DNA of 64,000 bases, from the NCBI GenBank assembly GCA_964106645.2, contig CAXKZF020000028.1. One strand, written 5' to 3'. Below the pieces are notes generated by a model. The model was not told the origin of the DNA. It saw only the letters and a program-made list of their open reading frames with translations, and ran no database searches. The translations under genes and the position numbers were made by a program. The DNA comes from Podarcis pityusensis (lineage: Eukaryota). This document shows, piece by piece, positions 27,120 through 56,564 of this stretch (the first letter of the stretch is position 1; each line of letters starts with the position of its first letter).

Positions 27120-27128
27120 GGAGACCCG

Positions 27129-29347: not shown

Positions 29348-29348
29348 C

Positions 29349-32300: not shown

Positions 32301-33611
32301 CCGGAACGAGTGTGGATCGACGGCGTAGAACAGACACAGGTCCCGGACCGGGCGTCCGTCACGGCAGGCACGTTCGCTGTCGAGGGTTCGAGCTCCGGTG
32401 CGGGCGGGAAACTGTTCACGTCCACCCGGTACGTGCTCGGCACCGACCCGAGCGGCCGGGAAGTCAGGGTCGCTGACCTCGCCGTGTGCCTGTCCTCACC
32501 TGGGCCACGGTTCACGATGCGCGGCGTCGGCGTCCGCCGGTACGCGACGTCCGTCCCGCAGCGCGGCGCAGTGAAGCTACGGCACCCAGCCTGCCTGATG
32601 CGTGACGTCACCATCGAAGACGTCTCCACCATCGGCCTGACCCTGTACCAAGCGCCAGGAACGACGTTGCAGAACTGCACGATCCGCCGCGTCGGGATGC
32701 TCGGCATCGACGGTTTCCAGAACGACGACACCACCATCACCCGCTGCGAGTTCTCGGACTGCAACCGTCAACGGTTCAACCGTTCCCCCGAGTCAGGGTG
32801 CGTCAAGGTCACGTCGTCGCGGCGGGTCAACGTCATCGGCAACACGCTCCGTGACTCGGCGTGCACCGCCGTGTGGATGGACGAATCAGTAGCGAAGTCC
32901 GTGATCGCCCGGAACCTGATCACAGGCGTCGCCGGGGTCGGCGTCCACGTCGAAATCTCCGGGACGTCCGTCATCACCGGGAACGTCGTGGACCGCGCCG
33001 GCGCAGACGGCATCCTCATCCAGAACGTGTCAGGCGCGGTCCGGGTCTGGAACAACACAGTGACGCGGTACGCGCAGGCCGGGAAGGGGTACGGCGTGTC
33101 CATTTGCGGGGACGCCCGGGCACCCTTGAACGCGGGCTCTGTCGGATTGGATAGCCGGTTCGGGTTCCCCCACCCAGACGGGATCACTGGCCTCACCGTC
33201 GATGTCGAGGTCCGTAACAACGTCGTCGGTCCCGTAACCGGGTCCGGTAACGCGTTCTGGTCGGTGCAGGACTACACGTCCTCGAGTAAACGCGCGTGGA
33301 CGCAGTTCGGGTTGAAGTCGGGCAGCAACCTGTACGGGCGGAAAGCGTCCGCGCCGTCGTGGCCGTGGATTCTGGAACGGTCCGGGACCGCTGACCCTGA
33401 GATCGTGTTCGACCTGTCCGGGCTCACCGCGAAAGGCCTGGACGGCGGGTCCGCCGTGAAAACCGACGACGACATGGCTGACGCGTCAGGTGACCTCACT
33501 CCTGGCGCGGTCGCCGCGCTCCCCGCCGGCGCGGCGCTACCTACCGATATCGCGGCGCTTCTCGGCGCCGCCGCTGGCGCGACCGACGTGGTCGGCGCGC
33601 CCACCCCGTAA
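29349..33611 (+). CDS. 1420-aa tailspike-like protein: unknown domain, alpha/beta-hydrolase esterase, right-handed beta-helix
   Basis: WLHGD..GFSGG; IYVATTGSD..PYATLGKA..LRGG followed by parallel beta-helix repeats. Confidence 0.8.
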   Translation: MAGFDPTLCAYVAPGGQTVRLAAQAASTANVAPVVALSSVTVGRVTTVTATVTGNTAAADLSRATWTVTPTPAPYAGQTFTGPTAVFSHGTAAAGASTVTVQVPRVDGGADVTVAASITYATVAVAPTTTRTWTRGGEVVPVAASFGFAAPRPGTDVRLVRTASPAAPTEATLIEARHVNFTAGTAQTFTANVAFPTVPGVGGGYEYRWETDMGGGHTIRSGPLPVWVIGTDPTCAPTDIAAAPATLPYPSVYVRAATDSGTVTPVSGKTYAQHAAKVAADWKATNLATPLGGAWIGYDDNPANLYWVNLDDTSIPRYTITYDDTSQAGPAPAGWYGTATATPFTRTRVAADVPIPNNATPTPGRALTIVGMRAGAVETIWELSGAVKRATGAWQADTVAATTPADEWRHSRGYTPTPSGLSPVAYTLRVAEAKAAVEYVRARRAAGQAVVDSELIARVPHALGVSMPAPAAGSISYPATGTDGTGPVDAVWEGQLFYLRQDADITARNLSPLQHVIAVVGKYRGFRCVARSGNSTILSVESDQAYGGNVWATIREPGETWKVTYPDDWFIPARQYPSKAAFDADTDTGIPSSTFVDAENVTFTNGSLSSRYHVYAAARSPASGLLFWLHGDAAYEFNNPNSTYVMGGTNGVKAVGKNRGYIVVNVLAPDTSGTVTWWENGQANAVWFAALLDALVVKYGVSRSKVVLCGFSGGAQFITQTFLPSYSNKLAGGGSIVFGGGGRPINPSNPSFSAAFKQAWWAYWATGALDDAAHSDEGYDALGYAKAGSAWYRNAGFVTGTNWIPGATHELDGTFGGLVAGVLDNPPKSASPPGAAQPGEQATAPPAAAIYVATTGSDTAAGTLQAPYATLGKAFAVVPDGGTIVLRGGNHHAGKQVPASGYTTGLVWPGVTGDAADVTLMGYPGEPAWLDGSTTHTGWAQNGAVWEKPVVTVTDRSPTGTYGADDNTAAGWAYINAAHPRAHWPERVWIDGVEQTQVPDRASVTAGTFAVEGSSSGAGGKLFTSTRYVLGTDPSGREVRVADLAVCLSSPGPRFTMRGVGVRRYATSVPQRGAVKLRHPACLMRDVTIEDVSTIGLTLYQAPGTTLQNCTIRRVGMLGIDGFQNDDTTITRCEFSDCNRQRFNRSPESGCVKVTSSRRVNVIGNTLRDSACTAVWMDESVAKSVIARNLITGVAGVGVHVEISGTSVITGNVVDRAGADGILIQNVSGAVRVWNNTVTRYAQAGKGYGVSICGDARAPLNAGSVGLDSRFGFPHPDGITGLTVDVEVRNNVVGPVTGSGNAFWSVQDYTSSSKRAWTQFGLKSGSNLYGRKASAPSWPWILERSGTADPEIVFDLSGLTAKGLDGGSAVKTDDDMADASGDLTPGAVAALPAGAALPTDIAALLGAAAGATDVVGAPTP

Positions 33612-33674
33612 ACCCTGAGTTCTCGTCCCTCCCCTGGTTCATTCGACCTTCCCTAAGCTGAACGGAGATGGGTT

Positions 33675-36083
33675 ATGCCCTCACCCTTGCGGTTCATGAA
33701 GATCCCCGGCGAATACTGGAAGGCGTTGGGTCCGGCGTTCGAGTCGCTGTCCCTGGACCTGTCCAGCGTCGAAGCAGCGGTCGCATCCGGGACCGGCGGC
33801 GGCAGCAGCGACCCAGGGTTAGCGGCCGCACCGAACGGGACCGACGACACCGACACCATCCGCGACGCCGTCGCCAACCGGAAGCGCCTCCGAGCGGGGA
33901 CGTACACGTGGCGCGGCACCACCGGCATCGACACTCCCGCACCGTTCCTCGTGGGTGTCCCCGGCCAAGGAACCACCATCCTCATCCCCGACGGGCAATA
34001 CCTCATCGACTCCGACCAGTTGTGGGAGTCGACGTGGCTGGAAGACGTGTTCTTCTACGGCGGCGCTGGCGCCGTCCGGAACCGGTTCACCGGGTCGAAC
34101 GTGTCCGGCCTGCACGTCGTCCGCGGGTGCCGGTTCCAAGACTTTACCGCCACCGCGATCAGCCACAACGCCTCCGACATGCCGTACTGGATGATCGACA
34201 AGTCGGTGTTCTGGGCACGGAACGAGACCGCGTCGATGGGGATCGCGCTGTCCGGGTTGACCGACTCATCCAGCATCATCGGGTGCGCGTTCTACAACTA
34301 CCGGGTTGCGGTGAAGCTGCGCGCAGGGTTCGCGAACATACGGATCCGGGACTGCGACTTCGTGCACTACGACGCGGCCGGCGCTGAGTCCCGCGCCTGC
34401 ATTTGGTTGGTCCCGAAGGGCACCGACTGGCAAGGCAACGTCAACGCTGGGAACGGCACCCTCATCGAGGGCAACAAGTTCGGGCCGGAAAATCTGGGCG
34501 TGAACGACTCCCGAATCCTCATCGCTGACGAAGGCGCCGGGGCGTTGAACGGGGTCAGGTTGCCGTCGGTTGCCGTGTCGGGTGGGTACGTGAACGGGGT
34601 CCGCGCCGCAGCGAACCTCGTCGGCGGCATGACCGAGAACCCGCCGCCGCTGATCCGGTCCTACACCCCCCACTTCATTTCCTCCCAGATCGTCGACAAC
34701 CAGATCGCTGGGACGATGCCGACCTACCTGCTCACGTACGAGGCGGGCGTCACCCCCGACGAGAAACCAGAAGTGACGATCGGGCCGATCACGCGGCAGT
34801 GGGCGGGCGCACCGCTCGGTACGGGCGGGCAGTCCGTGAAGGCCGTGAACCGGGCACCCGGCGAGTTCTGGATCGTCACCCGCAACACCACCGACCCGAA
34901 CGAACTGCTACCCGACTACGGCGAGCCCGGGTCGGTGGGCGCGAGCCCGGCAGCGACGGTCGGTTTCCCGCCGGAACCGGTCTCCGCGAACCCGGCGCCG
35001 GTGACGACAGTGCAGGTCGCCGGTGACGTCGCCGCGCTCCCAGCGCCGGTCGCGTCAGGGACGATGCTGGCGTTGGGTGACTCACCCGACCTGAACCGGT
35101 ACGTTTCCGGCGCTGGTAAACCGGTTAAGAACACCGACAGCGGCGTGTTCTTCGGTAACGGCGTCATCTCCAGCGCGCCGCAACGCGCCGGGTCAGCGTC
35201 ACAGACCGTGACACGGGTCGTCACGAACGCGCCGTGGCTGTGCCTCACCGGCTATTCCGCGCCGTCCGGGCAGTTCGACGGGCGCGTGTTCCTCCGCGTC
35301 AACGGCGTCCCCGTCTGGTCCCAACCCCGCGCGTTCACCGGGAACTACGACGGCCACGAATCCGGGGTGTACCTCGAGTTCGCGGACGCCACCACCAAGC
35401 TCGTCGAGATCACGACCGGTTGGATGCAGAACCGGCTCGCCGTCCCCACCGGGTCGACGCTGACCCCACCACCCGTCGACCCGTCACGTCACCGCCTCTA
35501 CATCATCGGTGATTCCTGGACCGACGGGACCGCGCAAGGCGGGCCGTGGCGGTCCTGGGCTCGCTACCTGCAGTCCGTGTCCGGGTGGGACATCGCCGTC
35601 CAAGGCCTCGGCGGGACCGGGTACGTCGCGGGGAACCCCGCGAACGCGTGGACGTCCCCGTTCGGTGTCGCCGCCCGCGTCAACGCCGCCATCGAGTCGA
35701 CACCCGACGTGCTCCTGATCGTTGGGTCCATCAACGACGGCGGCCAAACCGGCGTCCAATCCGCCGCTGAATCCATCATCACCCAGGTCGCGTCCGGGTC
35801 CGCAGCCACGAAGATCGCGATCATCGGCCCGCAAATCAAATCCGCCGAGCAGGCCGCAAACATGGACGCGCTCAACGCCGCCGCCGCAGGCAAGGCCAAC
35901 GTGATCGGGGTCCTGGACCCCGTCGCCGCTGGATGGGACGTCACCGGTGTCCGCGGGACACCCGGCGCGCCCACCCTGAACGACCCCGCCCACCCCACCC
36001 CCGCCGGCGTTGAATGGTGGGGACGGCGCGTCGAGGAATGGGTCCGCACCGTCACCGCCGGCGCTGGTGACCCGACGTGGTGA
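33675..36083 (+). CDS. Tailspike-like protein: beta-helix plus SGNH/GDSL esterase
   Basis: TDDTDTIRDAV; IGDSWT..GLGGTGY..GSIND..DPAHP. Confidence 0.82.
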   Translation: MPSPLRFMKIPGEYWKALGPAFESLSLDLSSVEAAVASGTGGGSSDPGLAAAPNGTDDTDTIRDAVANRKRLRAGTYTWRGTTGIDTPAPFLVGVPGQGTTILIPDGQYLIDSDQLWESTWLEDVFFYGGAGAVRNRFTGSNVSGLHVVRGCRFQDFTATAISHNASDMPYWMIDKSVFWARNETASMGIALSGLTDSSSIIGCAFYNYRVAVKLRAGFANIRIRDCDFVHYDAAGAESRACIWLVPKGTDWQGNVNAGNGTLIEGNKFGPENLGVNDSRILIADEGAGALNGVRLPSVAVSGGYVNGVRAAANLVGGMTENPPPLIRSYTPHFISSQIVDNQIAGTMPTYLLTYEAGVTPDEKPEVTIGPITRQWAGAPLGTGGQSVKAVNRAPGEFWIVTRNTTDPNELLPDYGEPGSVGASPAATVGFPPEPVSANPAPVTTVQVAGDVAALPAPVASGTMLALGDSPDLNRYVSGAGKPVKNTDSGVFFGNGVISSAPQRAGSASQTVTRVVTNAPWLCLTGYSAPSGQFDGRVFLRVNGVPVWSQPRAFTGNYDGHESGVYLEFADATTKLVEITTGWMQNRLAVPTGSTLTPPPVDPSRHRLYIIGDSWTDGTAQGGPWRSWARYLQSVSGWDIAVQGLGGTGYVAGNPANAWTSPFGVAARVNAAIESTPDVLLIVGSINDGGQTGVQSAAESIITQVASGSAATKIAIIGPQIKSAEQAANMDALNAAAAGKANVIGVLDPVAAGWDVTGVRGTPGAPTLNDPAHPTPAGVEWWGRRVEEWVRTVTAGAGDPTW

Positions 36084-36105
36084 ACCCGAGCGAGAGGAAC
36101 CACCA

Positions 36106-36783
36106 GTGTCTGCTCACGCAATGACCGCGCCGAACCGGCCGCAATGTTTCATGTCGCGGTGGCAGCCCGCGTCGCTGGTCACCTCCGACATCATCATCCT
36201 GAAGCTGATCCTCGGGGTGACCGCCCTCGTCCGCGCCGACGACTACGCCCACGGTGTCGCCGACTCCTACGGCGTCCTCGAGTCCGCGTTCCCGCTGTGG
36301 GTGTGGGCGGGTGTGTCCTACCTCGTCGGCGCGTGCATCCTCGCTGGGATCGCGTGGCAACGACACGGGCTGGTGTGGCTCGGCCACGCCGCCGGCGCCG
36401 GACTGTACGGCGTCCTCGCGCTCGCGTCGGCCGCGTCAGCGTTCAGCGAGTGGCCGCCCCGAGCAGGGGCGGCGGCGTCGACGGTGCCGCCGCAACTGTG
36501 GGTGGTCGTCGCGGCCGCGCTGGCCGTGACAGTGGTTGCGGGCGCGTTCACCGCGCGCGGGTATCTGCGGACGGCGTCACGGTTCGCGGCGGCACTCGGT
36601 GTCGGGGCCGTCGCTGTCGGTGTCGTCCTGGCGAACGCGCCCGCTGACGGGTTACGCGGCGCCGGTCCCCTCGCGGTCGTCGCCGCACTGCACACGCTGC
36701 TGATGTTGCGGTCTGGGCCGCGGCCCATGTCCGCCGACGAAGGCGCCGTCGTCGAAGAAACCACCGCGCCGGAGGGTGACTGA
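36106..36783 (+). CDS. Multi-pass membrane protein
   Basis: About six hydrophobic segments; RBS GAGAGGA. Confidence 0.7.
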   Translation: MSAHAMTAPNRPQCFMSRWQPASLVTSDIIILKLILGVTALVRADDYAHGVADSYGVLESAFPLWVWAGVSYLVGACILAGIAWQRHGLVWLGHAAGAGLYGVLALASAASAFSEWPPRAGAAASTVPPQLWVVVAAALAVTVVAGAFTARGYLRTASRFAAALGVGAVAVGVVLANAPADGLRGAGPLAVVAALHTLLMLRSGPRPMSADEGAVVEETTAPEGD

Positions 36784-37247
36784 TGGACATCCCACCTGGC
36801 GCGCTCACCACCGTGTTGTCGTTGCCGTGGGTGATCCAAGTCCTCGCTGTGATCGTCGTGATCGGGATCGTGATGCAGGCTGCGCCGCAAATGTCGGGAC
36901 GGTTCCAATCCACGATCGAGTCGTGGACGAACGGGCGACGCCGCACGAAGACCGCGTCGAAAGACGCTGACGTGTCCGCCCTGTCCAAGCAGGTCGACAA
37001 CATGCAAACCGTCCTCGCGGACACCCGCGCCGAACTGGCGTTGTCCCGCAAGGAACTACGCGACTTCCGCAACGAATCCCGCAAGTACCAGCAGGCGCAC
37101 GACGAAGTCCTCGGCACGCACGCCCTATGGGATCAGGCGATGATCGAGCGGCTCATCGAGCTCGGCGGGACACCGATCCCGAAACCGGCGCTGTGGCCGG
37201 ACCGTGACACCGCCCAGTCGGCGTCGCTGCCGATGACGAACACCTGA
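36783..37247 (+). CDS. Membrane-anchored coiled-coil protein (lysis-associated type)
   Basis: N-terminal TM segment, heptad region, Pro-rich tail. Confidence 0.65.
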   Translation: MDIPPGALTTVLSLPWVIQVLAVIVVIGIVMQAAPQMSGRFQSTIESWTNGRRRTKTASKDADVSALSKQVDNMQTVLADTRAELALSRKELRDFRNESRKYQQAHDEVLGTHALWDQAMIERLIELGGTPIPKPALWPDRDTAQSASLPMTNT

Positions 37248-37314
37248 CCGGAAGGCGGCACCGGTCATCGTCCTGTGCATTTCGTGCCGACCCCGCACAC
37301 TCGGAGGTAACTAG

Positions 37315-38607
37315 ATGGCTACCCGTTTCGACGTGGTCGCGGCAGAGTATTGGCGTAGTCTGCCTGCCCCGATCGCTGCCCTGTCCGCTGACCTCGCTGA
37401 GCTCGAAGCGAGCAGCGTCACCGGCGGCGGGTCCGGGGTCGCGTCATGGACGCCGTACGCGGCGTACACGGCCGGGCAGGTCGTGTCCCAAGCGAACGGC
37501 CTGTACCGCGCGAAAACCGCGTTGACCTCTGGCGCGTCATTCGACCCGGCCTTGTGGGACGCGCTCGTCGTGCCTGGCGCGTCCGGGTCCGCCGTGAACG
37601 TGCAACGAGCGGACGGGTCATGGACGTTGAACAAAGCCGCCGTCGACGCCGCGCACGCCACCGGTAGTTCCGTGCTGTGGTACACCCGCGCCAGCCAGCC
37701 CGCGCCGACCGCCGTGAACGGCCTCGCTGTCGGTGACGTCCTCGACGGCGTCATCAACACCACCGAAACCCTCACCTTCACAACCGTCGGGACCGCGCCG
37801 ACCGCGCAAGACGCGTCAGGCGTCGCGAACGACACCGTCACCCTCACCCGCGCCGCCGGCGTCACCTACACCGTCGACGGCGTCGACCACGCCTACGCGT
37901 CCTTCCCCGGCTCGACGAAGGTCGTGCCGTACACGAAGGGCACCAACACGACCGTCACCGCGAAACCCGAGACGGGGTACACGTTGACAGGTACGACGTC
38001 GTGGGCGTTGCTGTTCTCTAACGTCACCGTCACCACTGGCACCGTCATCACCACGGACACGTTCTCTGGTGGCGCCCGAACCGTCCCCGCCGGGACCAGC
38101 ACCACCACGGACGCCGTCAACGGTGGCACCCCGAAGACCGTCACCATCACCGGGACCGCTGAAATCACCGCGTCGGGCACGTTGAAACTGACCACGGCCG
38201 GCGCGAAATACCGCCTCGACAACACGCTGACGTCCTCGACCGCTGAGGCGCGGATCGTGAAGCTGCCCACGACCGGGCAACTCGACTTCTACCCCGCCGC
38301 GTCCGGGGAAGGAGTCATCAAGATCGCGATCCTGCCGACGGGGTCGTCCCGGATCTGGTTCACGACGAAGACCGGGTCGCAACGCGACTCCGGCACAGAC
38401 ATTTACGTCCAGGCCGGGGACGTCGTGCGCGGCACCAAGAACGGGCCCGCGATCAAGTACGAAGTGTTCCGCGGCGGCAGCTCGGTCGGATCCACAACAA
38501 TGACGGCGACCGCGGCGGAAGACTTCACCCCGACCGCGTACCAGTTCATCGCGACCGCGGCCGGGTCCGCCGCCGAAATCGACGACGTCAAGCTGACGGC
38601 CGGGTGA
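37315..38607 (+). CDS. Tail appendage protein with CBM5/12-like module
   Basis: WTPYAAYTAGQVVSQANGLYRAK; N-terminus similar to the 33675 gene. Confidence 0.7.
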   Translation: MATRFDVVAAEYWRSLPAPIAALSADLAELEASSVTGGGSGVASWTPYAAYTAGQVVSQANGLYRAKTALTSGASFDPALWDALVVPGASGSAVNVQRADGSWTLNKAAVDAAHATGSSVLWYTRASQPAPTAVNGLAVGDVLDGVINTTETLTFTTVGTAPTAQDASGVANDTVTLTRAAGVTYTVDGVDHAYASFPGSTKVVPYTKGTNTTVTAKPETGYTLTGTTSWALLFSNVTVTTGTVITTDTFSGGARTVPAGTSTTTDAVNGGTPKTVTITGTAEITASGTLKLTTAGAKYRLDNTLTSSTAEARIVKLPTTGQLDFYPAASGEGVIKIAILPTGSSRIWFTTKTGSQRDSGTDIYVQAGDVVRGTKNGPAIKYEVFRGGSSVGSTTMTATAAEDFTPTAYQFIATAAGSAAEIDDVKLTAG

Positions 38608-38611
38608 CCTG

Positions 38612-39886
38612 ATGCGCGCAATCTATGACGGGAACGGCGTCTGGGTCGACGTCACCGACGCGTCCCTCACGTTCCAGCCCGGCAGCAGGTACAAACCGCC
38701 GGCGTCGTCTGCGGTGAAGAAGGTCCCGGCGTCGATGACTGGCCCGAACGGGGAGAAGGTCGCGTCGATCGGGCCGTGGGTGTCCGCCGCTGGGGAACCA
38801 TACCGGCTCGCGCAACGCGCCGCCTTGGACCCGGCGTCCTCGACGAAAGCCGCGAAGTTCGTGCAAGGCATCCGCAACGGCGGCTACGGCAACGCCGCCG
38901 ACCTGCAGATGTACCAGTACGGGTACTCCATCTACGAATGCCACCCCGCCTCCACCCGGTACCGGATGAACAAGAACAGCAGCGGCGGGAAAAACGAGAA
39001 CCTGCTGGGCGGGTACGGGTTCTACGACGACCTGCAGACGTCGTATTCGACGTTCGAGAAGCGGGGCGTGTTCATGTCCGTGCCGATGGAGAAAGATTTC
39101 GTCGCCGCGTCCGGCACCGACGGCGGGATCATCATGTGGGACCCCGACGGCGACGAAGAGAGCGACTTCTGGCAGTTCCGTTGGCAGAAACGCACCCCAG
39201 GCCAGCTCGACGGGACCCCGCTGGCGGTAGCGGGCGGCCGCCTTAACCGGATGTCCACGAACACGTCGACGCAGTTCCCGCAATACAACGGGCAATGGTT
39301 CCACGGCCTGTCCGCGTCCCGCCTCGCCGCGGGCCCGTACGTCGTGAAGATCGCCGAGCTGGACCGGGCGATCGGGTCGGACGGGACGATCCCCGCCACG
39401 ATCGACGTGACCCGCCCCGACGGGACAGTGGACACGATCGACGCGCTCGACTCGATCGAACACGTGATGCTGTGCGCGATCGGGACAGGGTTCTCCGCGA
39501 AGTCACCGGCGCTGTCCTACCCCGCGAAGTACAACGACAACTACAACGGTTCCGCGCCCACCCAATCCGGGGGAGTGTCCTACGGGCAGACAACCCGGAT
39601 GCCCGCCGGTATTGACTTCCGGACGTGGAAACCGTCTGGGTGGAGCGGCGACGAAGCGCCCCTGTCGATCATGCGTCTGGTCGGGCGGGCCTGGCAGAAA
39701 CACGGCGTGATGCTCGCCGACATGGGTGGTTCGTTCGGGATCGCCGCGCAAACCAACGACCAAGCCCGCCGTAACGCGATGGTGAACAGGATCCCGAACC
39801 AGTCGAAGCTGCCGGGCGGGTACATCCAGAACTTGACGTTGCTGCCCGTCGAGCAGATCGAGGTGTGCGCGCTGCGCACCGCCTAA
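38612..39886 (+). CDS. Protein with the unknown domain also found in the 23275 and 29349 genes
   Basis: DFWQF..GLSASRL..IEHVM..SYPA..YGQ..RAWQKHGVMLAD. Confidence 0.65.
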   Translation: MRAIYDGNGVWVDVTDASLTFQPGSRYKPPASSAVKKVPASMTGPNGEKVASIGPWVSAAGEPYRLAQRAALDPASSTKAAKFVQGIRNGGYGNAADLQMYQYGYSIYECHPASTRYRMNKNSSGGKNENLLGGYGFYDDLQTSYSTFEKRGVFMSVPMEKDFVAASGTDGGIIMWDPDGDEESDFWQFRWQKRTPGQLDGTPLAVAGGRLNRMSTNTSTQFPQYNGQWFHGLSASRLAAGPYVVKIAELDRAIGSDGTIPATIDVTRPDGTVDTIDALDSIEHVMLCAIGTGFSAKSPALSYPAKYNDNYNGSAPTQSGGVSYGQTTRMPAGIDFRTWKPSGWSGDEAPLSIMRLVGRAWQKHGVMLADMGGSFGIAAQTNDQARRNAMVNRIPNQSKLPGGYIQNLTLLPVEQIEVCALRTA

Positions 39887-40971: not shown

Positions 40972-41238
40972 ATGTCGATCATCCGCACCCAACCCGCGCT
41001 GGTCACCTCGACGGTGACCGCTGTCATCGTGCTGCTCGTCGCGTTCGGTGTCCCGATCAGCGACGACCAGCGCGCCGCCGTCGTCGCTGCTGTCGCCGCT
41101 GTCCTCGCGCTCCTCGCCGGGGTGACCACGCACGCGCTCGCGACACCGACCGCTGACCCGAAAGCCGCTGACGGGACGCCACTGGTGCCCGTCACCGACG
41201 CGCCACCGGCAGCGGGCACCGACCCGGCCGTCATGTAA
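40972..41238 (+). CDS. Holin
   Basis: Two TM segments, VAFGVPISDDQRAA, directly after the lysin. Confidence 0.85.
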   Translation: MSIIRTQPALVTSTVTAVIVLLVAFGVPISDDQRAAVVAAVAAVLALLAGVTTHALATPTADPKAADGTPLVPVTDAPPAAGTDPAVM

Positions 41239-41252
41239 CGCGGCGGCTGGGC

Positions 41253-42047
41253 ATGGACGCCATCGAACGAATCTGCATCGACTACGCGAACGTCCCCCGC
41301 ATCGTCGCCGACCAAGTCACGCAGCTGTTGCCGCCGTCGGTGAACCGCGACGACGTCGAACCCGCCGCGTGGGAGGGCCTGTTCATGGCCGCCCGGACGT
41401 GGCGGCCCGACGGCGGCGCCCCCTTGAAACAGTGGGTGTTCTGGCGCGTGAGGTACGCCGTCATTAGCGAGGTTCGCCGCACGTCACGGTTGACGCGCCC
41501 GAAAATCCGGCAGGCGCAAATCGTGGACGCAGCCGTCGCCGACCTCACAAACAGGATGCGGCGTGCGCCGACCCCTGCGGAGGTCGCCGCTGAGACCGGC
41601 CTCACCGTCGACGAACTCGACGTGTTGGCGTACGCCCGCTATCAGGCGCGCCGGCCCGTCTACATCGACGAGACGGAGGAACCGTTAGCGATCGCGGCGG
41701 CGCCGATGCTGGACCCCGACCGAGCAGACCCCTATCTGCTCGGATGGGTCCGCGCGGCAGTCGCCGCGCTCGATGACCGCAACCGGTACGTCATCACCGA
41801 GCTTTACTGGAACGACGCGTCAACAGGGCAGCTCGGCGACGAGCTCGGCGTGACCGCGTCGCGGGTGTCGCAGATCAAGTCGGAAACGACCACGGCGATC
41901 GGTGACGCGATCTGGTTCAACGTCCGCGGCGATCCGGGCGCCGACGTCGGCACCGGGATCGTCTCGCGGCGACGCGACGCCTACCGAGCCGCCGTCGCTG
42001 ACCAGTACCGGCACATGCAAGAAGACCGGGCCGCGACCGCGGCCTGA
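41253..42047 (+). CDS. Sigma-70 family factor, FliA/WhiG-like
   Basis: Region 2 DDVEPAAWEGLFMAARTWRPDGG, region 3 RAPTPAEVAAETG, region 4 LGVTASRVSQIK. Confidence 0.88.
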   Translation: MDAIERICIDYANVPRIVADQVTQLLPPSVNRDDVEPAAWEGLFMAARTWRPDGGAPLKQWVFWRVRYAVISEVRRTSRLTRPKIRQAQIVDAAVADLTNRMRRAPTPAEVAAETGLTVDELDVLAYARYQARRPVYIDETEEPLAIAAAPMLDPDRADPYLLGWVRAAVAALDDRNRYVITELYWNDASTGQLGDELGVTASRVSQIKSETTTAIGDAIWFNVRGDPGADVGTGIVSRRRDAYRAAVADQYRHMQEDRAATAA

Positions 42048-42055
42048 AACCGTTG

Positions 42056-42089
42056 ACGGCCCTCACCTCTCTGCGAGGTGGGGGCCGTT
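42056..42089 (+). terminator. Terminator-like hairpin after the sigma gene
   Basis: ACGGCCCTCACCTC-tctgc-GAGGTGGGGGCCGT. Confidence 0.65.
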
Positions 42090-42184
42090 CCGTCGTCTCT
42101 GCGGTCAGGCGCGGGTCGCTTACTGCTCGCCGTCCTGCCCGTGCGTCGACCCGCGCGGGAAGCGGTGACGCATCAGTGACGCAC

Positions 42185-42218
42185 GAGGCCCCCGAACGGT
42201 GTCCGTCCGGGGGCCTTT
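42185..42218. terminator. Hairpin downstream of the tRNA 3' end and of int
   Basis: GAGGCCCCCG-AACGG-tgt-CCGTC-CGGGGGCCTT. Confidence 0.65.
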
Positions 42219-42223
42219 ATTGC

Positions 42224-42273
42224 TGGTGGGCGATACAGGACTTGAACCTGTGACCTCTTCCGTGTCAAGGAAG
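42224..42273 (-). other. attP common core = 3' half of tRNA-Val(GAC)
   Basis: Reverse complement CTTCC-TTGACAC-GGAAG-AGGTC-ACAGG-TTCAAGT-CCTGT-ATCGCCC-ACCA; D-arm and 5' acceptor strand missing; adjacent to int. Confidence 0.92.
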
Positions 42274-42409
42274 GTAAGGCCGCAGATCAGGGGTTCGACG
42301 CGACAGCAAGCGTCGCCATGATGTCTCGCGACGTCTCATACCGGGTCACCCCCGAGCATGGTCCTGACGCTGGAATGACGCATACCGCACCATCACGACG
42401 CATCACGTC

Positions 42410-43450
42410 TCACACGGGAACGGTGGCCCGTTGACCCAACGCCGCCCGGGCCCGCGCCAACCGGCCGTCACCGGCGTGCAGATATCGCTCCGTCGCACGC
42501 AACGACGAATGCCCCATCAACGCTGCAATCTCATGCGGCGGAACCCCATTCTCCGCCAACCACGACCCGTACGTGTGTCGAAGATCATGCGGCGTCGGAT
42601 ACGGCAACGCCAGACCCGCCGCCTTCACGGCCGGCACGAACACGCGCCGCCGCCAGTTCGTGTAAGCCACGCCCGGGAACAGCATCCCCGATGACACGAA
42701 CGGCCGGAGCGCGTCCGCGACCCGATCCACCATCGGCACGACCCGTTGCCCCGCCGCGGACTTCGGCAACGGCTTCACAGACCCGTCCCGCAACGTCACC
42801 TCTACCACCATGAGTTGCCCACGACCGAAGTCCACCCGGTGCGCGTGCAAACCTGACGCCTCACCCCACCGCAGACCGCAATACGTCATCAACAGGATCA
42901 ACGCCTGATCCTGGGGCTGTGACACGTGAGCGAAGAGGGCGTCGAACTCGTCGACCGTGAGGAACCGGTCGACGTGCTTCGGCGCGCGAGGCAGCGGCAC
43001 ACCCGCGGTCGGGTCCACGCGGATCCGCTTGTGCCGGGTCGCGTCAGCCAGCATGTGCCGCAGCAACCGCACGGACTGTTGCGCCGCGACCGCGCCGACC
43101 TCGCGGCGGCGCATGTCACTGATCCACTGCTCAACGTCCAGAGGCGTGATGGCGCGTAGTTTCATCGCACCCCACCGAGGCTGTACGTGGTTGCGCCAGT
43201 GGGACCGGTCGCGCGCCAGCGTGTTGGCTTCGACGCTGCGCGCCGCTGACCATTCCGTCCACCACTGCTCGACGGTGACGTTTCCGTCTTGGGGGTCGGC
43301 CCACGACCCGCGGCGCATGTCCGCTTCCTGGTCCCGAGCCCATGTCTCCACGACACGTTTCAGGGGGTCGGTGCGGGTGCGGCGTGACCCGTCCGGGGTG
43401 CGGACGGTCGCCTGCCACTTCTGCGATGGGAGCTTACGAACGTAGGGCAC
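42410..43450 (-). CDS. int: Tyrosine integrase
   Basis: GLRWGE, PKS, HDLRHTY, MGHS..TERYLH catalytic residues; N-terminal arm-binding domain. Confidence 0.95.
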   Translation of the reverse strand: MPYVRKLPSQKWQATVRTPDGSRRTRTDPLKRVVETWARDQEADMRRGSWADPQDGNVTVEQWWTEWSAARSVEANTLARDRSHWRNHVQPRWGAMKLRAITPLDVEQWISDMRRREVGAVAAQQSVRLLRHMLADATRHKRIRVDPTAGVPLPRAPKHVDRFLTVDEFDALFAHVSQPQDQALILLMTYCGLRWGEASGLHAHRVDFGRGQLMVVEVTLRDGSVKPLPKSAAGQRVVPMVDRVADALRPFVSSGMLFPGVAYTNWRRRVFVPAVKAAGLALPYPTPHDLRHTYGSWLAENGVPPHEIAALMGHSSLRATERYLHAGDGRLARARAALGQRATVPV

Positions 43451-43721
43451 TGTCGCGCCGCCCTTCTTTGTCGCGCACGACGACGAGGCCTCGTCGACGG
43501 CCGGCGCGGTATCCGATGTCGTAGCCGACTTCGTACGCCTCATCTAATGATGCCGGGGTTCGTAGCAGGACCGCGGTTAGGGCGATCGCGCACCCCAGGA
43601 GTGACACGGTCAAGCCGATGTAGAAGTGCGGGCTGTTGGTGGCGAAGTTGAGTGCGGCGGTTGTGGCTCCTGCAATGACGGTCAGGCATCCGATGCCTGC
43701 GATGTATGTCGTCCTTGGCAT
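43434..43721 (-). CDS. Two-TM membrane protein between repressor and int
   Basis: Two hydrophobic helices, AYEVGYDIGY. Confidence 0.7.
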   Translation of the reverse strand: MPRTTYIAGIGCLTVIAGATTAALNFATNSPHFYIGLTVSLLGCAIALTAVLLRTPASLDEAYEVGYDIGYRAGRRRGLVVVRDKEGRRDSALRS

Positions 43722-43778
43722 ACGTCCCCCTTGGTGCGTGGTTTCCCCTGGCCGGGTGGTGCGGGGTGGGTGCCTGCC

Positions 43779-44099
43779 CTACTGGGCGCGGCGGTCCTGG
43801 TCGGCGGCGCTGACGCGGCGCTTGGCCCAGGCGATGGTTTCGGCCCGGACGCCGATCTCGGTGGCCGCGTCGAAGTCGTGGGCGGCGAGGGCGAAGAGCC
43901 CGTCGGCGGGTAGCCCGAGGCCTTGTTCGAGCCGCTTGAACGTGGAGTGTTTGACGTTGGGTTCGGCGTCGCGGATGCGGTAAAGGCTGGCGCGGCTGAT
44001 CCGTGTTCGTCGTTCGGCGTCGGGCCAGCTGTCGAAGGTGCGTCCGACTTCCATGTCGATGAGGTCGGCGATGAGTTGGCGGTCGAAGTGGGCTGACAT
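43779..44099 (-). CDS. Immunity repressor (XRE-type HTH)
   Basis: AERRTRISRASLYRIRD..TFKRLEQGLGL; RBS AGGAGG; divergent from the Cro/Xis gene. Confidence 0.8.
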   Translation of the reverse strand: MSAHFDRQLIADLIDMEVGRTFDSWPDAERRTRISRASLYRIRDAEPNVKHSTFKRLEQGLGLPADGLFALAAHDFDAATEIGVRAETIAWAKRRVSAADQDRRAQ

Positions 44100-44127
44100 G
44101 CGGGGGGCCTCCTGAGTAGGCGCATGT

Positions 44128-44276
44128 TGTCTCATAACGTCCCATACTGTCGCGCATCGGGTGCCCTGACGCCAACACTCTGGACGACCGTTCAACATCA
44201 CGGTTTGATCACAGCCCCAAATTCGTTGCCGCCGTGGGTTGCTCAAACTGTCTCATGCTGTCTAATGTCGTCTCAT
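44128..44276. promoter_or_regulatory. Divergent switch region: 10-bp phased YGTCTCAT repeats and a rightward promoter (TTGCTC-18-TAATGT), probably leaderless
   Basis: Repeats at 44128, 44138, 44249, 44259, 44269; -35 at 44239, -10 at 44263, ATG at 44275 with no RBS. Confidence 0.65.
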
Positions 44277-44481
44277 GACGCAGAGCGCACCCACCGAAAC
44301 GGGACTGCTGAGGCCCGCGGAGGCGGGCGACAAGCTTCGACTGTCCCGGTCCACCATCTACCGGCTCATCGAAAGCGGAGAGCTGGACACCGTCCACGTC
44401 GGCAACCGACAGGCCACCCGCATCACCCAGTCAACGATCAACGACTACATCGCGCGCCACAGCATCAAGCGCAGCGCCTGA
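44275..44481 (+). CDS. Cro/excisionase-type HTH protein
   Basis: LLRPAEAGDKLRLSRSTIYRLIESGEL..RITQSTINDYI. Confidence 0.88.
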   Translation: MTQSAPTETGLLRPAEAGDKLRLSRSTIYRLIESGELDTVHVGNRQATRITQSTINDYIARHSIKRSA

Positions 44482-45175
44482 CACCACCAGCACTCCGCCC
44501 GGTCGCCGTGACGACAGCGACCGGCGACCGGGCCGGAGAGCACCAATCCCACCTGAGACACCGCCGTAAGGCGATGCCGTCATGCCCTCACACGGCGAGG
44601 TGGGAGCGCACGAACCGCCCGGCCCGAACCATCCCCGGTTCACCAACGGCCGCGAGCACCCGCACCTTGCCAACTCCACAGCGAAGATCAGCTCACCCAC
44701 CCCAGGAGGAACCAACCCTGGGCCGGGTCTACAACGCGGTGAAGCCAGCCACACGCAAGCAGTGGTGGGCCGCATGAAGCTGACGCCCCGGAGCACGGGG
44801 CGACGTCCCACCGAGAGCCCGGACCACCGGGCCTGGGACACCAAGAACACGCCGCGCTCGGGTCTCCCTTGCAAGCGCGGCGACCTCGACCAGTAGAACG
44901 CCGGCACCAGCCGAGCGCGCCCCCGCCATCACCGGCGGGCCGGTGACGCGATGACAGCACCCCGGCCGCACCCCAGGTGCGCCTACACACCGTCGAGGTA
45001 GAAGCACACGACACCCGGCCCGTGAGACCGGTTACCTCTCGCAGTCCCGCGCCTGATCGCGTCAGCCGCCGCCACCCCTGGGCGGCGCATCGAAACAAAA
45101 GGCCACCGCCCGGCTCAACACCGGGGCGGGACACCAACACCCCCTCCCCTTCACCAGGCTCAGTTAGGAGCTGCC
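44482..45175 (+). ncRNA. Candidate structured RNA tract (hairpin array, several stems followed by ACCA)
   Basis: About ten GC-rich inverted repeats with A/C-rich linkers; no convincing ORF. Confidence 0.55.
45044..45136 (+). tRNA. Non-canonical or degenerate tRNA-like cloverleaf
   Basis: Acceptor GTCCCGC/GCGGGAC plus ACCA, D-stem CTGA/TCAG, 7-bp anticodon-position stem, T-arm CCCGG-CTCAACA-CCGGG. Confidence 0.55.
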
Positions 45176-45499
45176 ATGACCCACACCGACGACGCACTCG
45201 ACATGCGCGACCTGAACACCCACCAACGCTGGCACATAGCGGACGTCATCACCTACGCGATCGGGGCCGAGCTGTCCGACGTCGACGGCCTCACCGACCG
45301 CATCCGCGGCGGCGAATGGCTCGCCATCGACGAGGTCGCCGGCGGCGCCGACCAGATGGACGACCTCGCCAACCACCTCCGGCACGTGTGGCCGGACGCC
45401 GCCGCGTACCTCGAACAGCTCGCCGCGCAGACCCGCGCCGACCCCGACTGGGTGGGCGCAGACCGGGCCGTCGACGAATCCGTGTGGGCCGACGCATGA
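45176..45499 (+). CDS. Hypothetical protein
   Basis: RBS TAGGAG. Confidence 0.7.
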   Translation: MTHTDDALDMRDLNTHQRWHIADVITYAIGAELSDVDGLTDRIRGGEWLAIDEVAGGADQMDDLANHLRHVWPDAAAYLEQLAAQTRADPDWVGADRAVDESVWADA

Positions 45500-45687
45500 A
45501 GACCGCCGCGGCCCTGTACGTCGCCGCCACCGCGGTGATCGCGGGCGCTGTCGCTGAACGACTCACCGCGACCGGCGCACCCACCACAGCCGTATGGGTC
45601 GTTACCGCGGTCATCGTCGGCCTGTCCGGGCTCGGCGGGTACGTCCTCGCCGCCGCCACCTACCAGGTGCGGGGGCGGTCGTCGTGA
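45496..45687 (+). CDS. Small two-TM membrane protein
   Basis: ATGA overlap; hydrophobic. Confidence 0.6.
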   Translation: MKTAAALYVAATAVIAGAVAERLTATGAPTTAVWVVTAVIVGLSGLGGYVLAAATYQVRGRSS

Positions 45688-45878
45688 CGGTCATGCTCAC
45701 CTTCCTGGCGTGCACCGTGTACGTCGCCGCGCTGATCTGGTTCATCGCGTGGTGGTCACGGCAACACGCCCAGACCGGACGCCGCGAATGCGCGCAATGC
45801 GGTGCCCGGCTCGCACCGACCCCGCCAGGACTCCCCCGCACCGACTTCTGCCCCGCCCACGCATGGCGGGGACAGTGA
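45684..45878 (+). CDS. Small membrane-anchored Zn-ribbon protein
   Basis: TM segment then CAQCG..FCPAH. Confidence 0.6.
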   Translation: MTVMLTFLACTVYVAALIWFIAWWSRQHAQTGRRECAQCGARLAPTPPGLPRTDFCPAHAWRGQ

Positions 45879-46090
45879 CCGCGAACCGGGAACGGTGGTC
45901 CGAGCGGGAACACCGATACGTCACCGACGACGAACTCGACTACACCAACCCCGCGAACTGCTACGGCCACAACCACCCGACCCGGCACGTACCGGAACCG
46001 GCGCCGAACCCGCTGACCGGTCCCGAGTTGATCGCCGCGCTCCAAGCCGCCGTGAACCGTCGCCGCGCCGAACGCAAGGAGAACCCGTGA
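45875..46090 (+). CDS. Hypothetical protein
   Basis: GTGA overlaps at both ends. Confidence 0.5.
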   Translation: MTANRERWSEREHRYVTDDELDYTNPANCYGHNHPTRHVPEPAPNPLTGPELIAALQAAVNRRRAERKENP

Positions 46091-46275
46091 ACCCCGCAAC
46101 GTTGCAGGCAGCGCACCGCGCCGCCGCCCGAGCGATCGCCGCCATCCTCAACGACCCGGCCATCTACGAAGGCGTCCCCGAAGAGAACGTCGAAGCGGTC
46201 TGCGAACTCCTGACCGACTGGTATTCGCGGCACGACGACGAATCCGCTGCCGTCACCCCCCGGAAACCGTGGTGA
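46087..46275 (+). CDS. Hypothetical protein
   Basis: RBS AAGGAG, GTGA overlap. Confidence 0.55.
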   Translation: MNPATLQAAHRAAARAIAAILNDPAIYEGVPEENVEAVCELLTDWYSRHDDESAAVTPRKPW

Positions 46276-46429
46276 CCGGCTTTGCCTCGTGGTGGCGGAC
46301 GCGAGTGGCGCGCCGCGCCGCCCGGACCAGCACCCGCCACAACGAATCACGGTGCGGACACCCCAACGCCAGCTACTTCACGCCGGAGGTTTGCCCGTCC
46401 CCGGTCACACCCCAAAGGAGGGATCGCGG

Positions 46430-47422
46430 ATGACTGACTCCGGCTCGAGCGAACCCACAGGCGCCGGTCCCGACAGTGACGACGTGCTCCCCGCCGACGC
46501 CGACCGACCCGACTGGCTCGCGGCTCGATTGAGCGGGATTGGCGGGTCCGACGCATCCACCATCGCAGGCGTCAACCCGTACTCAAGCCTGTATGAGCTG
46601 TGGCTCGACAAGACCGGGCAGGCCATCGAGAAGCCAGTGACGTCCGCGATGCGTTTCGGGCACCTCATCGAGGGCCCCGCCCGTCAAGTGTTCACCGAGG
46701 ACACCGGGATCGGGGTCCGTCTCTCCGGTCTGCAACGGTCGAAGGCGCGGCCGTGGCAGCTCTGCACCCCCGACGGGATCACCGACGACGGGGGCCTGTT
46801 CGAGTGCAAGTCCGTCGGGTGGCGCCTCGCGGACGACTGGGGTGACGACCAGATCGGCGACCACGCCGAGGTGCAGGTGCAGCACGGGATGGACGTGACC
46901 GGGCTCCGGCACGCGTGGGTGATCGCCTGCATCGACCGCGAGTTCGTCATCCGACGCGTCGACTACGACCCCGAACTCGCCGCGACGATCCGCGGCATGG
47001 CCGATGAGTTCTGGCACCGGAACGTCCTCGACGGCGTCGAGCCGGCGATTGTCGCCCGAGATCTTGGCGCGGCCCGCCGCCGGTGGGCGATCGCGTCGCA
47101 GGACGTGAAGCTGTCCTCGACGCCGTGGCTACCTGAGCAGCTCGCTGAGCTCGCGCACGTGAAGCGCGCCGCGGCCGACCTCGCTGATCGCCGGGCACGG
47201 CTGGAAGCCGAGTTGATCGACTACATCGGCGACGCCGAAGGCGCTGGCGTCATTGACGAAAACGGCGACGGTTTCGTCACCGTCACCCGCAAATCCCACA
47301 CCCGTGCCGGGTTCGACAAAGCGTCGTTCGGCGCGGACCACCCGGACCTGCTTGAGCAGTACACCACCACCACCTATTACCGGCAGCTCAACGTGCTGTC
47401 GAAACCGAAGAAGGTGAGCTGA
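46430..47422 (+). CDS. YqaJ/RecE-type exonuclease
   Basis: WLAARLSGIGGSDA..ELWLDKTG..TPDG..FECKS..QVQHGM. Confidence 0.92.
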   Translation: MTDSGSSEPTGAGPDSDDVLPADADRPDWLAARLSGIGGSDASTIAGVNPYSSLYELWLDKTGQAIEKPVTSAMRFGHLIEGPARQVFTEDTGIGVRLSGLQRSKARPWQLCTPDGITDDGGLFECKSVGWRLADDWGDDQIGDHAEVQVQHGMDVTGLRHAWVIACIDREFVIRRVDYDPELAATIRGMADEFWHRNVLDGVEPAIVARDLGAARRRWAIASQDVKLSSTPWLPEQLAELAHVKRAAADLADRRARLEAELIDYIGDAEGAGVIDENGDGFVTVTRKSHTRAGFDKASFGADHPDLLEQYTTTTYYRQLNVLSKPKKVS

Positions 47423-51747: not shown

Positions 51748-51939
51748 ATGCCGCACCTCGTCTGCCGTGCCTGCACACCGCCGGTTCGGATGCAGGTACC
51801 CGATGACGACGCCGGCGAGACCCGCGCGTGGGTCGCGCACTGCCGGGCCAACCACCCCGAGATGGGCGGCCCCGCAAACCGGTATCCACGCCGCCAACCC
51901 GACGGCGACCCGACCCCACCCACCAACCGTCACGCGTGA
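51748..51939 (+). CDS. Small Zn-binding protein
   Basis: CRAC..HCRANH. Confidence 0.45.
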   Translation: MPHLVCRACTPPVRMQVPDDDAGETRAWVAHCRANHPEMGGPANRYPRRQPDGDPTPPTNRHA

Positions 51940-51993
51940 GTCACGGTGATTGTCACGCGTGACTCACGCGTGACGTCACGCGGTTGTCACGCG
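51929..51993. repeat. Iteron-like GTCACGCGTGA array 1
   Basis: Palindromic 11-12-bp units directly upstream of the initiator RBS. Confidence 0.85.
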
Positions 51994-52397: not shown

Positions 52398-52610
52398 CAT
52401 GCGGCGTGAGTCACGCGGTTGTCACGGTGATTGTCACGCGTGACTCACGCGTGACGTCACGCGTGACGTCACGCGTGACGTCACGCGTGAGTCACAGCAC
52501 CCCGACCCGACCCGACCCGACCCGACTAAGTACTTGTGGTCACCGTCTGTTTTCGGGGCTTGGGTTGTTTGTTCTTACCCCTTGTGATTGAGAATCAAAA
52601 TCAACTTACG
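52392..52610. repeat. Iteron-like array 2, (CCCGA)5 and AT-rich tract: putative replication origin
   Basis: (GTCACGCGTGAC)n 52392-52495, CCCGA x5 52501-52525, then lower-GC DNA. Confidence 0.7.
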
Positions 52611-55630: not shown

Positions 55631-55903
55631 ATGTGGCACTCATTGACACCGGTCGTCGCGGCAGGCGCCGACCAGAACATGCTGTTCAACAACCCGAAAG
55701 TTCTGTTCGTCATCACCCTCGTCATCGGCGCGATCCTCATCCTCAAGGGGTTCACGATCGCGAAGAGCAAGAACACGACGTTGACGAAGGCGTTAGAGGA
55801 CGGCGGCGTGTCCCTGTTCGGGGCGTTCCTCGTCGTCCTGGGCTTGTCCGTGCCGGTGGTCGTGGGCTTGATGACCGGGGTCGTCAACTGGGTCGGGGCA
55901 TGA
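55631..55903 (+). CDS. Small two-TM protein, pilin/VirB2-position candidate
   Basis: Leader plus two hydrophobic helices with a basic loop; first gene of the module. Confidence 0.6.
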   Translation: MWHSLTPVVAAGADQNMLFNNPKVLFVITLVIGAILILKGFTIAKSKNTTLTKALEDGGVSLFGAFLVVLGLSVPVVVGLMTGVVNWVGA

Positions 55904-55904
55904 C

Positions 55905-56564
55905 ATGACCCGCGTCCACTCAGACAACCCCGTCCGGTACGTGGAGGCGTACTGGCTGGGTGGCCGCGGGTGGCAGTGGTGGTTCACGGCGCGAGCTAAA
56001 GCGTTCGCTTTGTGCCTGTTCCTGTTCGCGACGTTCGTTGGTCCGGCCGCGGCCGGGATCGCCGCGTTGGCGTGGTGGGCGGAACCGAACGTGCTCGTTG
56101 CTGGTGTCGGCGGCGTCGTCGGCGCCGCGGTCGCGTTGGAGTCCGCGGCCACCGTCACCCGTTGGTTGTCGCCGCGGCTGACGCCTGCAACGCCGGTCCG
56201 GTACTGGATTGAGCAGGCCGTGCATGTCGCACGCGCGCCGCGCCCGCCCGCCCCACCCACCCCGCACGTCCTGCCCTCGCCAGCCCGCGCGCACACCCCG
56301 ACTGACCGCACGGTCAATGTCGGTCCCGACTGGAGGAATCATGACTGCACCACTTGCCGAGAAAGTGACGTCGCGGCTCGCGAACGTCGCCGCGTGGATG
56401 CGGCCCGCGCCGCAAGAACTCGCGACCCGCTACATCCTGCAGAACTTGGCCGTCACCCGCTCCGAGACGTGGGCGTATTTCGTGCTGGCCGACGTCGACT
56501 GGCACTCCAAGTCCGACACGGATCGCGGGTCGCTGTACCTGCAGCAGGCGGCGAGGGTCGCTGA
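55905..56564 (+). CDS. TcpE/VirB3-like membrane protein
   Basis: Two TM segments directly upstream of the VirB4-like ATPase; 3' end overlaps it. Confidence 0.55.
   Translation: MTRVHSDNPVRYVEAYWLGGRGWQWWFTARAKAFALCLFLFATFVGPAAAGIAALAWWAEPNVLVAGVGGVVGAAVALESAATVTRWLSPRLTPATPVRYWIEQAVHVARAPRPPAPPTPHVLPSPARAHTPTDRTVNVGPDWRNHDCTTCRESDVAARERRRVDAARAARTRDPLHPAELGRHPLRDVGVFRAGRRRLALQVRHGSRVAVPAAGGEGR

Follow-up and report, generated by a model that had tools for sequence, protein, structure and literature searches.

The window considered here, the whole stretch of 64,000 nucleotides that was analysed, takes up positions 1-64000 of a contig that is 66,649 bases long and belongs to a eukaryote assembly of 1.5 Gb. 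The contig has a GC content of 68% and contains terminase, portal, head, tail and tape-measure genes, as well as genes for an endolysin, a tyrosine integrase, an excisionase, RecE and RecT. The nearest named relatives of RecE and RecT belong to Arthrobacter, Gordonia and Mycobacterium phages (up to 41-50% identity), and the integrase is 46-48% identical to integrases in Nocardioides prophages. The contig is an actinobacterial-type temperate phage, most likely co-assembled as contamination. After the minor tail genes there is an exceptionally long series of large ORFs (21859-39886, plus strand); none of the eight that were scanned has a PHROG match at E <= 1e-5, and among them there is one Pfam match each to a beta-helix, a GDSL hydrolase and, weakly, a carbohydrate-binding module. 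Palindromic repeats of GTCACGCGTGAC-type units, with a short tandem run, lie around a putative replication gene (51935-51985 and 52405-52530) and are possibly origin iterons. Inside what is a complete tailed phage we also observed a conjugation-like gene block (55631-63771, plus strand), which encodes a small two-helix pilin-like ORF, a large ATPase with a weak AAA_10 match below the cut-off (E 0.0013), a 638-aa protein whose hydrophobic stretches look membrane-like, and an NlpC/P60 hydrolase. We take the block to resemble VirB2/VirB4/VirB6/VirB1, and the phage may be a phage-conjugative hybrid. Beyond the window, at contig positions 65640-66344, there is a weakly RNA-ligase-like ORF (PF17720, 24.6 bits against a cut-off of 25) that is possibly involved in RNA repair.

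The Xis/Cro-like gene is the first gene of the early rightward unit, and the tract that is the subject of this analysis lies directly 3' of it (Table 1). The divergent putative repressor gave no family match, homologue searches with the first ORF after the tract came up empty, and no sigma-70-type promoter was found in 41000-47000. The phage encodes a sigma-70 family factor of its own (41253-42047, plus strand) in the interval from the lysis genes to attP. At 46 of 50 positions the segment 42224-42273 (minus strand) is identical to the 3' part of a Nocardioides tRNA-Val(GAC), as expected of attP, and three related prophages (L080, L158 and L159) adjoin tRNA-Val(GAC). Of the 16 copies of the hexamer GTCTCA in the window, seven lie in the region from attP to the tract, two of them within the tract (42333, 42407, 44129, 44250 and 44270 on the plus strand; 44554 and 45023 on the minus strand). 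Similar repeats also occur upstream of xis in L038, L039 and L078; these sequences may be Xis or repressor sites.

Table 1. Features of the tract and of the genes beside it (positions in the window)
Feature	Position	Strand	Evidence
Tyrosine integrase	42410-43543	-	phrog_1, E 8e-69
Putative repressor, divergent	43779-44099	-	position; syntenic homologues in four related phages
Xis/Cro-like HTH_17/excisionase gene	44275-44481	+	phrog_66, E 6e-7; PF12728
Structured non-coding tract, xis to first early gene	44482-45175	+	z -6.3; flat codon-position GC
E1, long hairpin then ACCA	44490-44545	+	z -6.1, 0/200 shuffles; pair probability 0.95
E2, 8-bp stem ending GCGCA, no CCA	44547-44605	+	z -2.1; pair probability 0.64
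E3, weak 6-bp stem and ACCA	44612-44645	+	z -1.6 alone; pair probability 0.00 in context
Hairpin domains without CCA	44688-44783 and 44784-44802	+	local folding
E4, minihelix and ACCA	44805-44843	+	z -3.5; pair probability 0.68-1.00
9-bp hairpin then ACCU, no CCA	44850-44882	+	folding
15-nt arm, 13/15 complementary to 45056-45070 of E6	44938-44952	+	possible alternative fold, within chance
E6, tRNA-like domain	45044-45136	+	geometry scan, fold probabilities
E6 acceptor, 7 bp, G1-C72	45044-45050/45126-45132	+	folding
E6 possible D-like arm, 4 bp	45053-45065	+	predicted unformed, probability 0.03; alternative helix 45051-45054/45100-45103
E6 7-bp arm with 7-nt loop	45067-45087	+	folding
E6 T-arm, 5 bp and CUCAACA loop	45109-45125	+	stacked on acceptor
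Small hairpin covering Shine-Dalgarno AGGAG (45166-45170) of next gene	45157-45172	+	ribosome-binding site unpaired 0.41
First early ORF after tract, 107 aa	45176-45499	+	coding-type GC bias

The original prediction held that this 694-nt gap contains no convincing ORF, and its codon-position GC is indeed flat (0.74/0.70/0.67), while third-position GC reaches 0.82-0.92 in the four genes flanking it. The best ORF inside the tract (44582-44896) has codon-position GC values of 0.68/0.61/0.79 and is without a match in PHROG and Pfam scans. A coding function was ruled out by the absence of codon-position GC bias. When the tract was folded with RNA parameters, the plus strand was better than all of 20 dinucleotide shuffles (z -6.30), the control that had been proposed for it; with DNA parameters z is -5.10, and the minus strand folds more weakly (z -2.89). 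In a scan of the phage with 93 windows of 350 nt and 12 shuffles each, two other windows, at 42001 (z -7.0) and at 701 (z -5.9), folded better than those over the tract, for which we found z -4.7 at 44801, -4.4 at 44482 and only -1.6 at 44826. Local folding divides the tract into 12 exterior domains. No terminator-like site, that is a hairpin followed by a U tract, was found in it, as the U-rich tail is lacking. The tract is thus a real structured non-coding feature.

Every stem that the original prediction placed downstream of the Cro/Xis gene is present at its position. The further claim, that at least four stems are followed immediately by ACCA, stands for the tetranucleotides, which are found at 44542, 44642, 44840 and 45133, and for three robust stems; the fourth, at 44612-44641 (E3), is weak and does not form in context. 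E1 has a 7-bp acceptor-like base with one A.A mismatch and about 12 further base pairs, is closed by G-C, and resembles hairpin-type RNase P substrates; it could alternatively be a terminator or the 3' end of the xis mRNA. E2 is possibly a three-way junction with a GUAA-tetraloop arm. In E4 a 6-bp acceptor-like stem is stacked on a second 6-bp stem with a 4-nt loop, giving 12 base pairs in total, again closed by G-C. All four ACCA elements (E1, E3, E4 and E6) start with G and close with G-C. Each of them also contains one copy of the hexamer GCCCGG; these four copies are the only ones in the tract, where 0.6 would be expected, and they suggest a common origin by duplication or a common recognition feature.

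How much weight the ACCA ends can bear depends on the control. By a strict count there are three stems followed by ACCA in the tract, matched by 2 of 1000 shuffles, and by a loose count five, one of them spurious, matched by 3 of 2000, in both cases with the caveat that shuffling destroys the hairpins too. The linkers of the tract consist of A or C at 66 of 75 letters (88%), and ACCA alone is for this reason only moderate evidence: it makes up 4 of the 38 non-first 4-mers of the linkers and also occurs before stems. Three of the 12 domains have a tail that begins with ACCA, for which p ranges from 0.008 (base composition) to 0.19 (empirical 4-mers). Among A/C-rich tails behind stable domains in 92 GC-rich control loci, a set that excludes duplicates and any locus retrieved with an ACCA pattern, ACCA comes first in 14 of 372 (3.8%); the binomial p for three of 12 against this frequency, calculated by hand, is about 0.009, and the tail-picking routine itself, applied to the tract, chose three domains, two of them with ACCA. 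The control tails begin with ACCC (23), ACAC (19), CACC (17) and ACCA (14 of 372), so that ACCA is not enriched behind actinophage hairpins, and among perfect hairpins with A/C tails in related loci it is initial in one of 18. The ACCA signal in the tract is moderate and not decisive, and much of it could stem from A/C-rich linkers, a common sequel to hairpins in actinophages.

These figures bear directly on a reading of the tract as an ordinary leader or attenuator, in which GC-rich hairpins act as U-less terminators or as pause or stabiliser stems, the linkers are of A and C, one element is a decayed tRNA remnant whose tRNA shape serves no function, and ACCA is a by-product of linker composition. 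The composition of the linkers and the presence of ACCA before stems and inside linkers are what such a leader would show. Single hairpins with A/C tails are common in the relatives and occur elsewhere in this phage as well (about 925-960), E3 is unformed, and E2 is without CCA. Against it, GCCCGG is confined to the four ACCA elements, and ACCA tails amount to only 3.8% in the controls.

A tRNA-shaped domain of 93 nt (E6), which had not been predicted, begins at 45044 and is closed by the ACCA at 45133. It has a spacing of 2 nt after the acceptor and 1 nt after the D-like arm, a 21-nt variable region, and A73 followed by CCA, and its end lies 39 nt before the next start codon. As read from the sequence, the T-loop keeps U55, C56, A57 and A58 (U55-C56-R57-A58) and the G53-C61 closure. 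E6 thus combines a 7-bp acceptor and a 5-bp T-stem with a 7-nt loop and NCCA, and it is the sole instance of this geometry on both strands of the window. The same test on 1,269,702 nt of GC-rich loci gave 14 matches, of which 13 have canonical TTCRA T-loops and the 14th is a chance match in a locus fetched by our own pattern. The top-half geometry arose in 11 of 20,000 dinucleotide shuffles and in 199 of 20,000 simulated hairpin-rich tracts, in both cases before the retained T-loop identities and loop closure are counted. E6 is one statistically solid, unannotated tRNA-like domain.

E6 shares with canonical phage class II tRNAs the 7-bp acceptor, the 2-nt and 1-nt spacers, 7-nt loops, a long variable region and A73-CCA, and its 3' half resembles phage tRNA-Arg/Leu found by pattern scan (L017, L020 and L027). 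It differs from them in G8, C33, U37, C54 and A60, in lacking A14 and G18-G19, and in being called by neither default ARAGORN nor Rfam. The invariants of decoding tRNAs (U8; A14, G18 and G19; U33 and purine 37; T54) are absent from E6, whose D loop reads UCGCG and whose 7-nt loop reads ACCCCUG. ARAGORN, which had been suggested as a check, reports no gene by default and calls E6 only at -ps80, a setting at which the window yields 189 calls, and the Rfam tRNA model has no match to E6 at E <= 10 (141 nt searched). Given G8, the lack of a D-loop G-G, C33, U37, C54, the unformed D arm and the failure of ARAGORN and Rfam to call it, E6 is not a decoding tRNA. The acceptor and T-arm have probabilities of 0.94-1.00 in transcripts that stop no later than 45180; once about 60 nt of the next gene are included (to 45235), the equilibrium values fall to 0.07-0.24 in one calculation and to 0.41-0.50 in another; the fold is accordingly favoured co-transcriptionally or during translation of the next gene, and uncertain at equilibrium.

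The prediction of tRNA mimicry is supported for 45044-45136, and is plausible for the 6+6-bp minihelix at 44805-44843. The alternative offered with it, a decayed tRNA cluster, fits one element only, as the other stems are without tRNA geometry. For an ordinary leader with a tRNA relic, a tRNA ancestor of E6 is easily imagined, since phage tRNAs with deviant T-loops exist, including one with NUCAACA (L249). Yet the perfect 7+5 helix and ACCA persist despite the lost D and anticodon identity, and random decay should presumably have eroded the stems too.

We searched widely for relatives of the tract. Against 50,697 phage records, blastn found no true homologue (best E 0.03, all matches short), and there was no true match in plasmids or in 24 loci of integrase relatives; 401 sampled genomes of one actinobacterial order gave only short matches at chance level. 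Rfam on the window found nothing at the gathering score and only chance-level hits (E 1.1-10), among them a Streptomyces-metK match that was rejected as weak (12.2 bits, E 2.5). Two pattern scans of viral contigs yielded 17 loci, of which three were real tRNAs and the rest chance or single hairpins, and five loci, all chance. A degenerate T-arm pattern matched six of 401 actinomycete genomes, on inspection none in a tRNA-like non-coding setting, and 30 xis-like loci (381 genomes) and 40 other loci showed no comparable tract except for a two-hairpin gap in L040. The tallies for the T-arm (401 genomes) and for the xis loci (381 genomes) include five genomes flagged as unpublished (G011, G034, G036, G040 and G047), of which no loci or sequences were used. 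Protein-anchored scans with the ORF after the tract, RecT or the single integrase found no relatives, those with RecE and xis found distant relatives only, and integrase-profile searches matched two of 301 and one of 301 genomes.

None of the six relatives that have the same integrase-repressor-xis module carries the tract after xis, as would be expected of an ordinary leader; two of the six have a single hairpin there, with an A/C tail in which ACCA follows a few bases on. A close relative in run X2, represented by one contig at a depth of 2.7 that leaves 44544-44811 uncovered and is uninformative there, shows 2 changes in the 181 letters of 44898-45078, a segment made up of the 5' half of E6 and the 146 nt before it; this is far below the 33 found over 45188-45423 and the 34 of 189 found in genes downstream. 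Pieces of the integrase and the repressor differ to a similar extent as the tract (3/151, 3/203, 8/151, 5/257 and 6/256), and the conservation of the tract may reflect linkage and not selection. Among the sequencing runs listed as containing the stretch there is none of RNA. Run X1 probably represents the source sample itself and does not count as independent. One of its contigs has a loose end at 44539, where the depth increases from 14.7 to 18.2; this single contig suggests a second phage variant, identical from the 3' end of E1 onward but with other DNA upstream, and with a swapped immunity module.

Analogues were sought with a T-arm pattern carrying a non-T at position 54, which retrieved 34 viral loci. 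Inspection showed many of these to be clustered tRNAs, one to be tmRNA-like and several to be chance matches. Seven near-identical loci (L232, L235, L238, L251, L252, L256 and L257; the L232 family) have a gene-free hairpin tract of about 350 nt (in L232 at 1991-2330, minus strand), and a tRNA-like element of 70 nt forms its end, immediately ahead of a ribosome-binding site. An alignment of six of these loci shows the tRNA-like element conserved next to downstream genes that differ, and a single change converts a G.U acceptor pair to A-U. ARAGORN calls a 97-nt tRNA-His with a different 5' end at this element, and Rfam gave no match on L232 and L256. This family is better suited to covariation analysis than the present window. 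L227 has a tRNA-like element between two genes, just before the ribosome-binding site, and L233 has one in a gene-free gap. Because the scan pattern fixed the T-arm, the likeness of these T-arms exists by construction, and the L232 family, L227 and L233 are analogues and not shown homologues. In L040, one of the two relatives with a single hairpin after xis, a 127-nt gap in the early operon (9096-9222), 1.2 kb downstream, contains two strong tandem hairpins, each followed by ACCA (z -4.2), directly before a pentapeptide-repeat gene. A plain hairpin in Variovorax phage V45iii shares its acceptor ends and its ACCA tail with E6 (blastn E 2). Separately, L236 (2001-2068, minus strand) contains a 68-nt mini-tmRNA consisting of the tRNA-like domain only, with the mRNA part missing (Rfam tmRNA, 59.6 bits).

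Non-tRNA substrates of RNase P have a helix that starts with G and ends in 3' RCCA, and acceptor minihelices are also substrates. E1, E4 and E6 have this form, and E3 has it in sequence only. Like the minihelix models of an acceptor and T-arm, E4 is a 12-bp coaxial helix with NCCA; it differs from them in a 6-nt bulge-like linker and in a 4-nt loop without T-loop sequence. Bacterial RNase P is reported to cut the hairpin-like phage RNAs CI of P4, C4 of P1/P7 and M3 of phi80 (PMC5499578). The tract resembles these in being a non-coding, structured early-phage RNA with hairpin or acceptor-like RNase P substrate shapes (PMC5499578, PMC4825925). It differs from them in that no Rfam match and no antisense targets were found, in having several elements within 694 nt, in belonging to an actinobacterial-type phage, and in that E6 has a true T-arm, a part described as missing from those substrates. 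A second likeness is to YrlA, a bacterial Y RNA with a non-decoding tRNA-like domain consisting, as in E6, of a T-arm and a 7-bp acceptor (PMC4201824). The same source describes the YrlA of M. smegmatis, an actinobacterial tRNA-like RNA, as cut by RNase P and as gaining CCA (PMC4201824). In E6, by contrast, CCA is encoded and stands at a normally oriented acceptor end, and there is no Rfam Y RNA or YrlA match; Ro60/TROVE found no match in the 36 ORFs that were Pfam-scanned, including all genes beside the tract.

E6 keeps the acceptor, T-arm and CCA and has lost the features of decoding, and the simplest account would thus involve enzymes that read the top half of tRNA. Since RNase P cuts both hairpin-like phage RNAs and an actinobacterial tRNA mimic, we favour processing or stabilising signals. 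We therefore hypothesize, tentatively and as the likeliest of the accounts considered here, that the tract forms a structured, untranslated part of the early rightward transcript and carries tRNA-derived signals of the RNase P type. Host RNase P would cut 5' of the first G of E6 and probably also of E4 and E1, so that the xis mRNA would be separated from the recombination and replication genes. The downstream message would keep a protective tRNA-like 5' end ahead of its start codon, and further trimming could yield small stable RNAs with CCA ends. The most likely job of such signals would be post-transcriptional tuning of the early operon, through punctuation and stability. Judged by its sequence in a single genome, the tract would be best classed among phage tRNA-like RNase P substrates.

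Some observations count against RNase P processing. Bacterial RNase P prefers a U directly 5' of the cleaved element; the bases 5' of the four ACCA elements are A, C, C and A. No homologue of the tract was found and none of the six module relatives carries it, the p value of the ACCA control rises to 0.19, and the D arm of E6 has a probability of 0.03 and is without the G18-G19 pair. An ordinary hairpin leader with one tRNA relic, possible but less probable, ranks close behind.

If E1, E4 and E6 were released with a free 3'-CCA, they could act as decoys that bind defence enzymes acting on the acceptor end, such as toxSAS pyrophosphokinases or MenT-type nucleotidyltransferases. Acceptor minihelices are substrates of the toxSAS enzyme FaRel2, which modifies them efficiently and reads only the first five pairs and CCA (10.1101/2024.07.05.602228), and the three elements present different acceptor sequences in the early transcript. 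The sub-threshold RNA-ligase-like gene of the phage would also fit. The determinants given for FaRel2 in that source are G1-C72, C2-G71, G4-C69 and Pu5-Py68, most of which are absent from E4 and E6 (G1-C72, U2-A71, C4-G69, C5/A5), although members of the toxSAS group differ in specificity (10.1101/2024.07.05.602228). Decoys would moreover need precise 3' processing, which is hypothetical here, the phage is temperate, and its relatives are without the tract. We consider decoys unlikely.

Still less likely is a cis-acting antitermination RNA, or a single-stranded DNA hairpin serving as an origin or transfer signal, with the tRNA likeness incidental. Lambdoid antitermination sites lie right after the cro/xis gene, as the tract does, and HK022 put is a cis-acting antitermination RNA. 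The tract also folds as DNA (z -5.1), in a phage that contains a conjugation-like gene block. Neither function predicts T-loop identity or CCA ends, however, and no match to a relaxase or rolling-circle Rep was found among the ORFs scanned, which are part of those of the phage.

We regard as the least probable reading an immunity or antisense RNA of the type of P4 CI and P1 C4, in which a processed RNA pairs upstream and downstream in the same transcript and causes termination. Like CI, whose pairing partners are seqA and seqC (PMC4825925), the tract stands at the front of the early operon and has a shape of the RNase P type, and E6 has a complement at 13 of 15 positions in the arm 103 nt upstream. 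But for ten loop segments the longest complements in 44181-46500 are of at most 9 nt, with none at a downstream ribosome-binding site, and the best pairing of E6 within its own operon (-93.6 kcal/mol) is surpassed by its pairing with each of 187 other sense stretches of the phage. In addition, the phage has a candidate protein repressor, and the tract has no Rfam match.

In the literature searched, which left most subscription papers outside, we found nothing on such an actinophage tract or on decoys of phages that mimic tRNA. One survey, of candidate RNAs from viruses, mentions tRNA-like structures in general and analyses neither CCA ends nor RNase P (PMC10690425). Should the RNAs be freed with a CCA end, the decoy idea can be tested against acceptor-end toxins with short synthetic RNAs. 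An early cassette of non-decoding tRNA mimics, freed by RNase P and 3' trimming, that soaks up toxSAS- or MenT-like toxins is in our estimate improbable; were it true, the tRNA-like ends before early genes (L232 family, L227, L233, L295 and L040) would amount to a widespread, unannotated RNA counter-defence. If neither processing nor release holds, the tract would be an ordinary hairpin leader with one tRNA relic. Because standard tRNA and Rfam searches miss such elements, and a single degenerate T-arm scan found analogues in unrelated phages, a hidden class of them may exist. Phage substrates of RNase P are named, in the literature consulted, only for the coliphages P4, P1/P7 and phi80. If RNase P does cut the elements described here, temperate actinobacterial phages would process their early transcript by tRNA-shaped punctuation.
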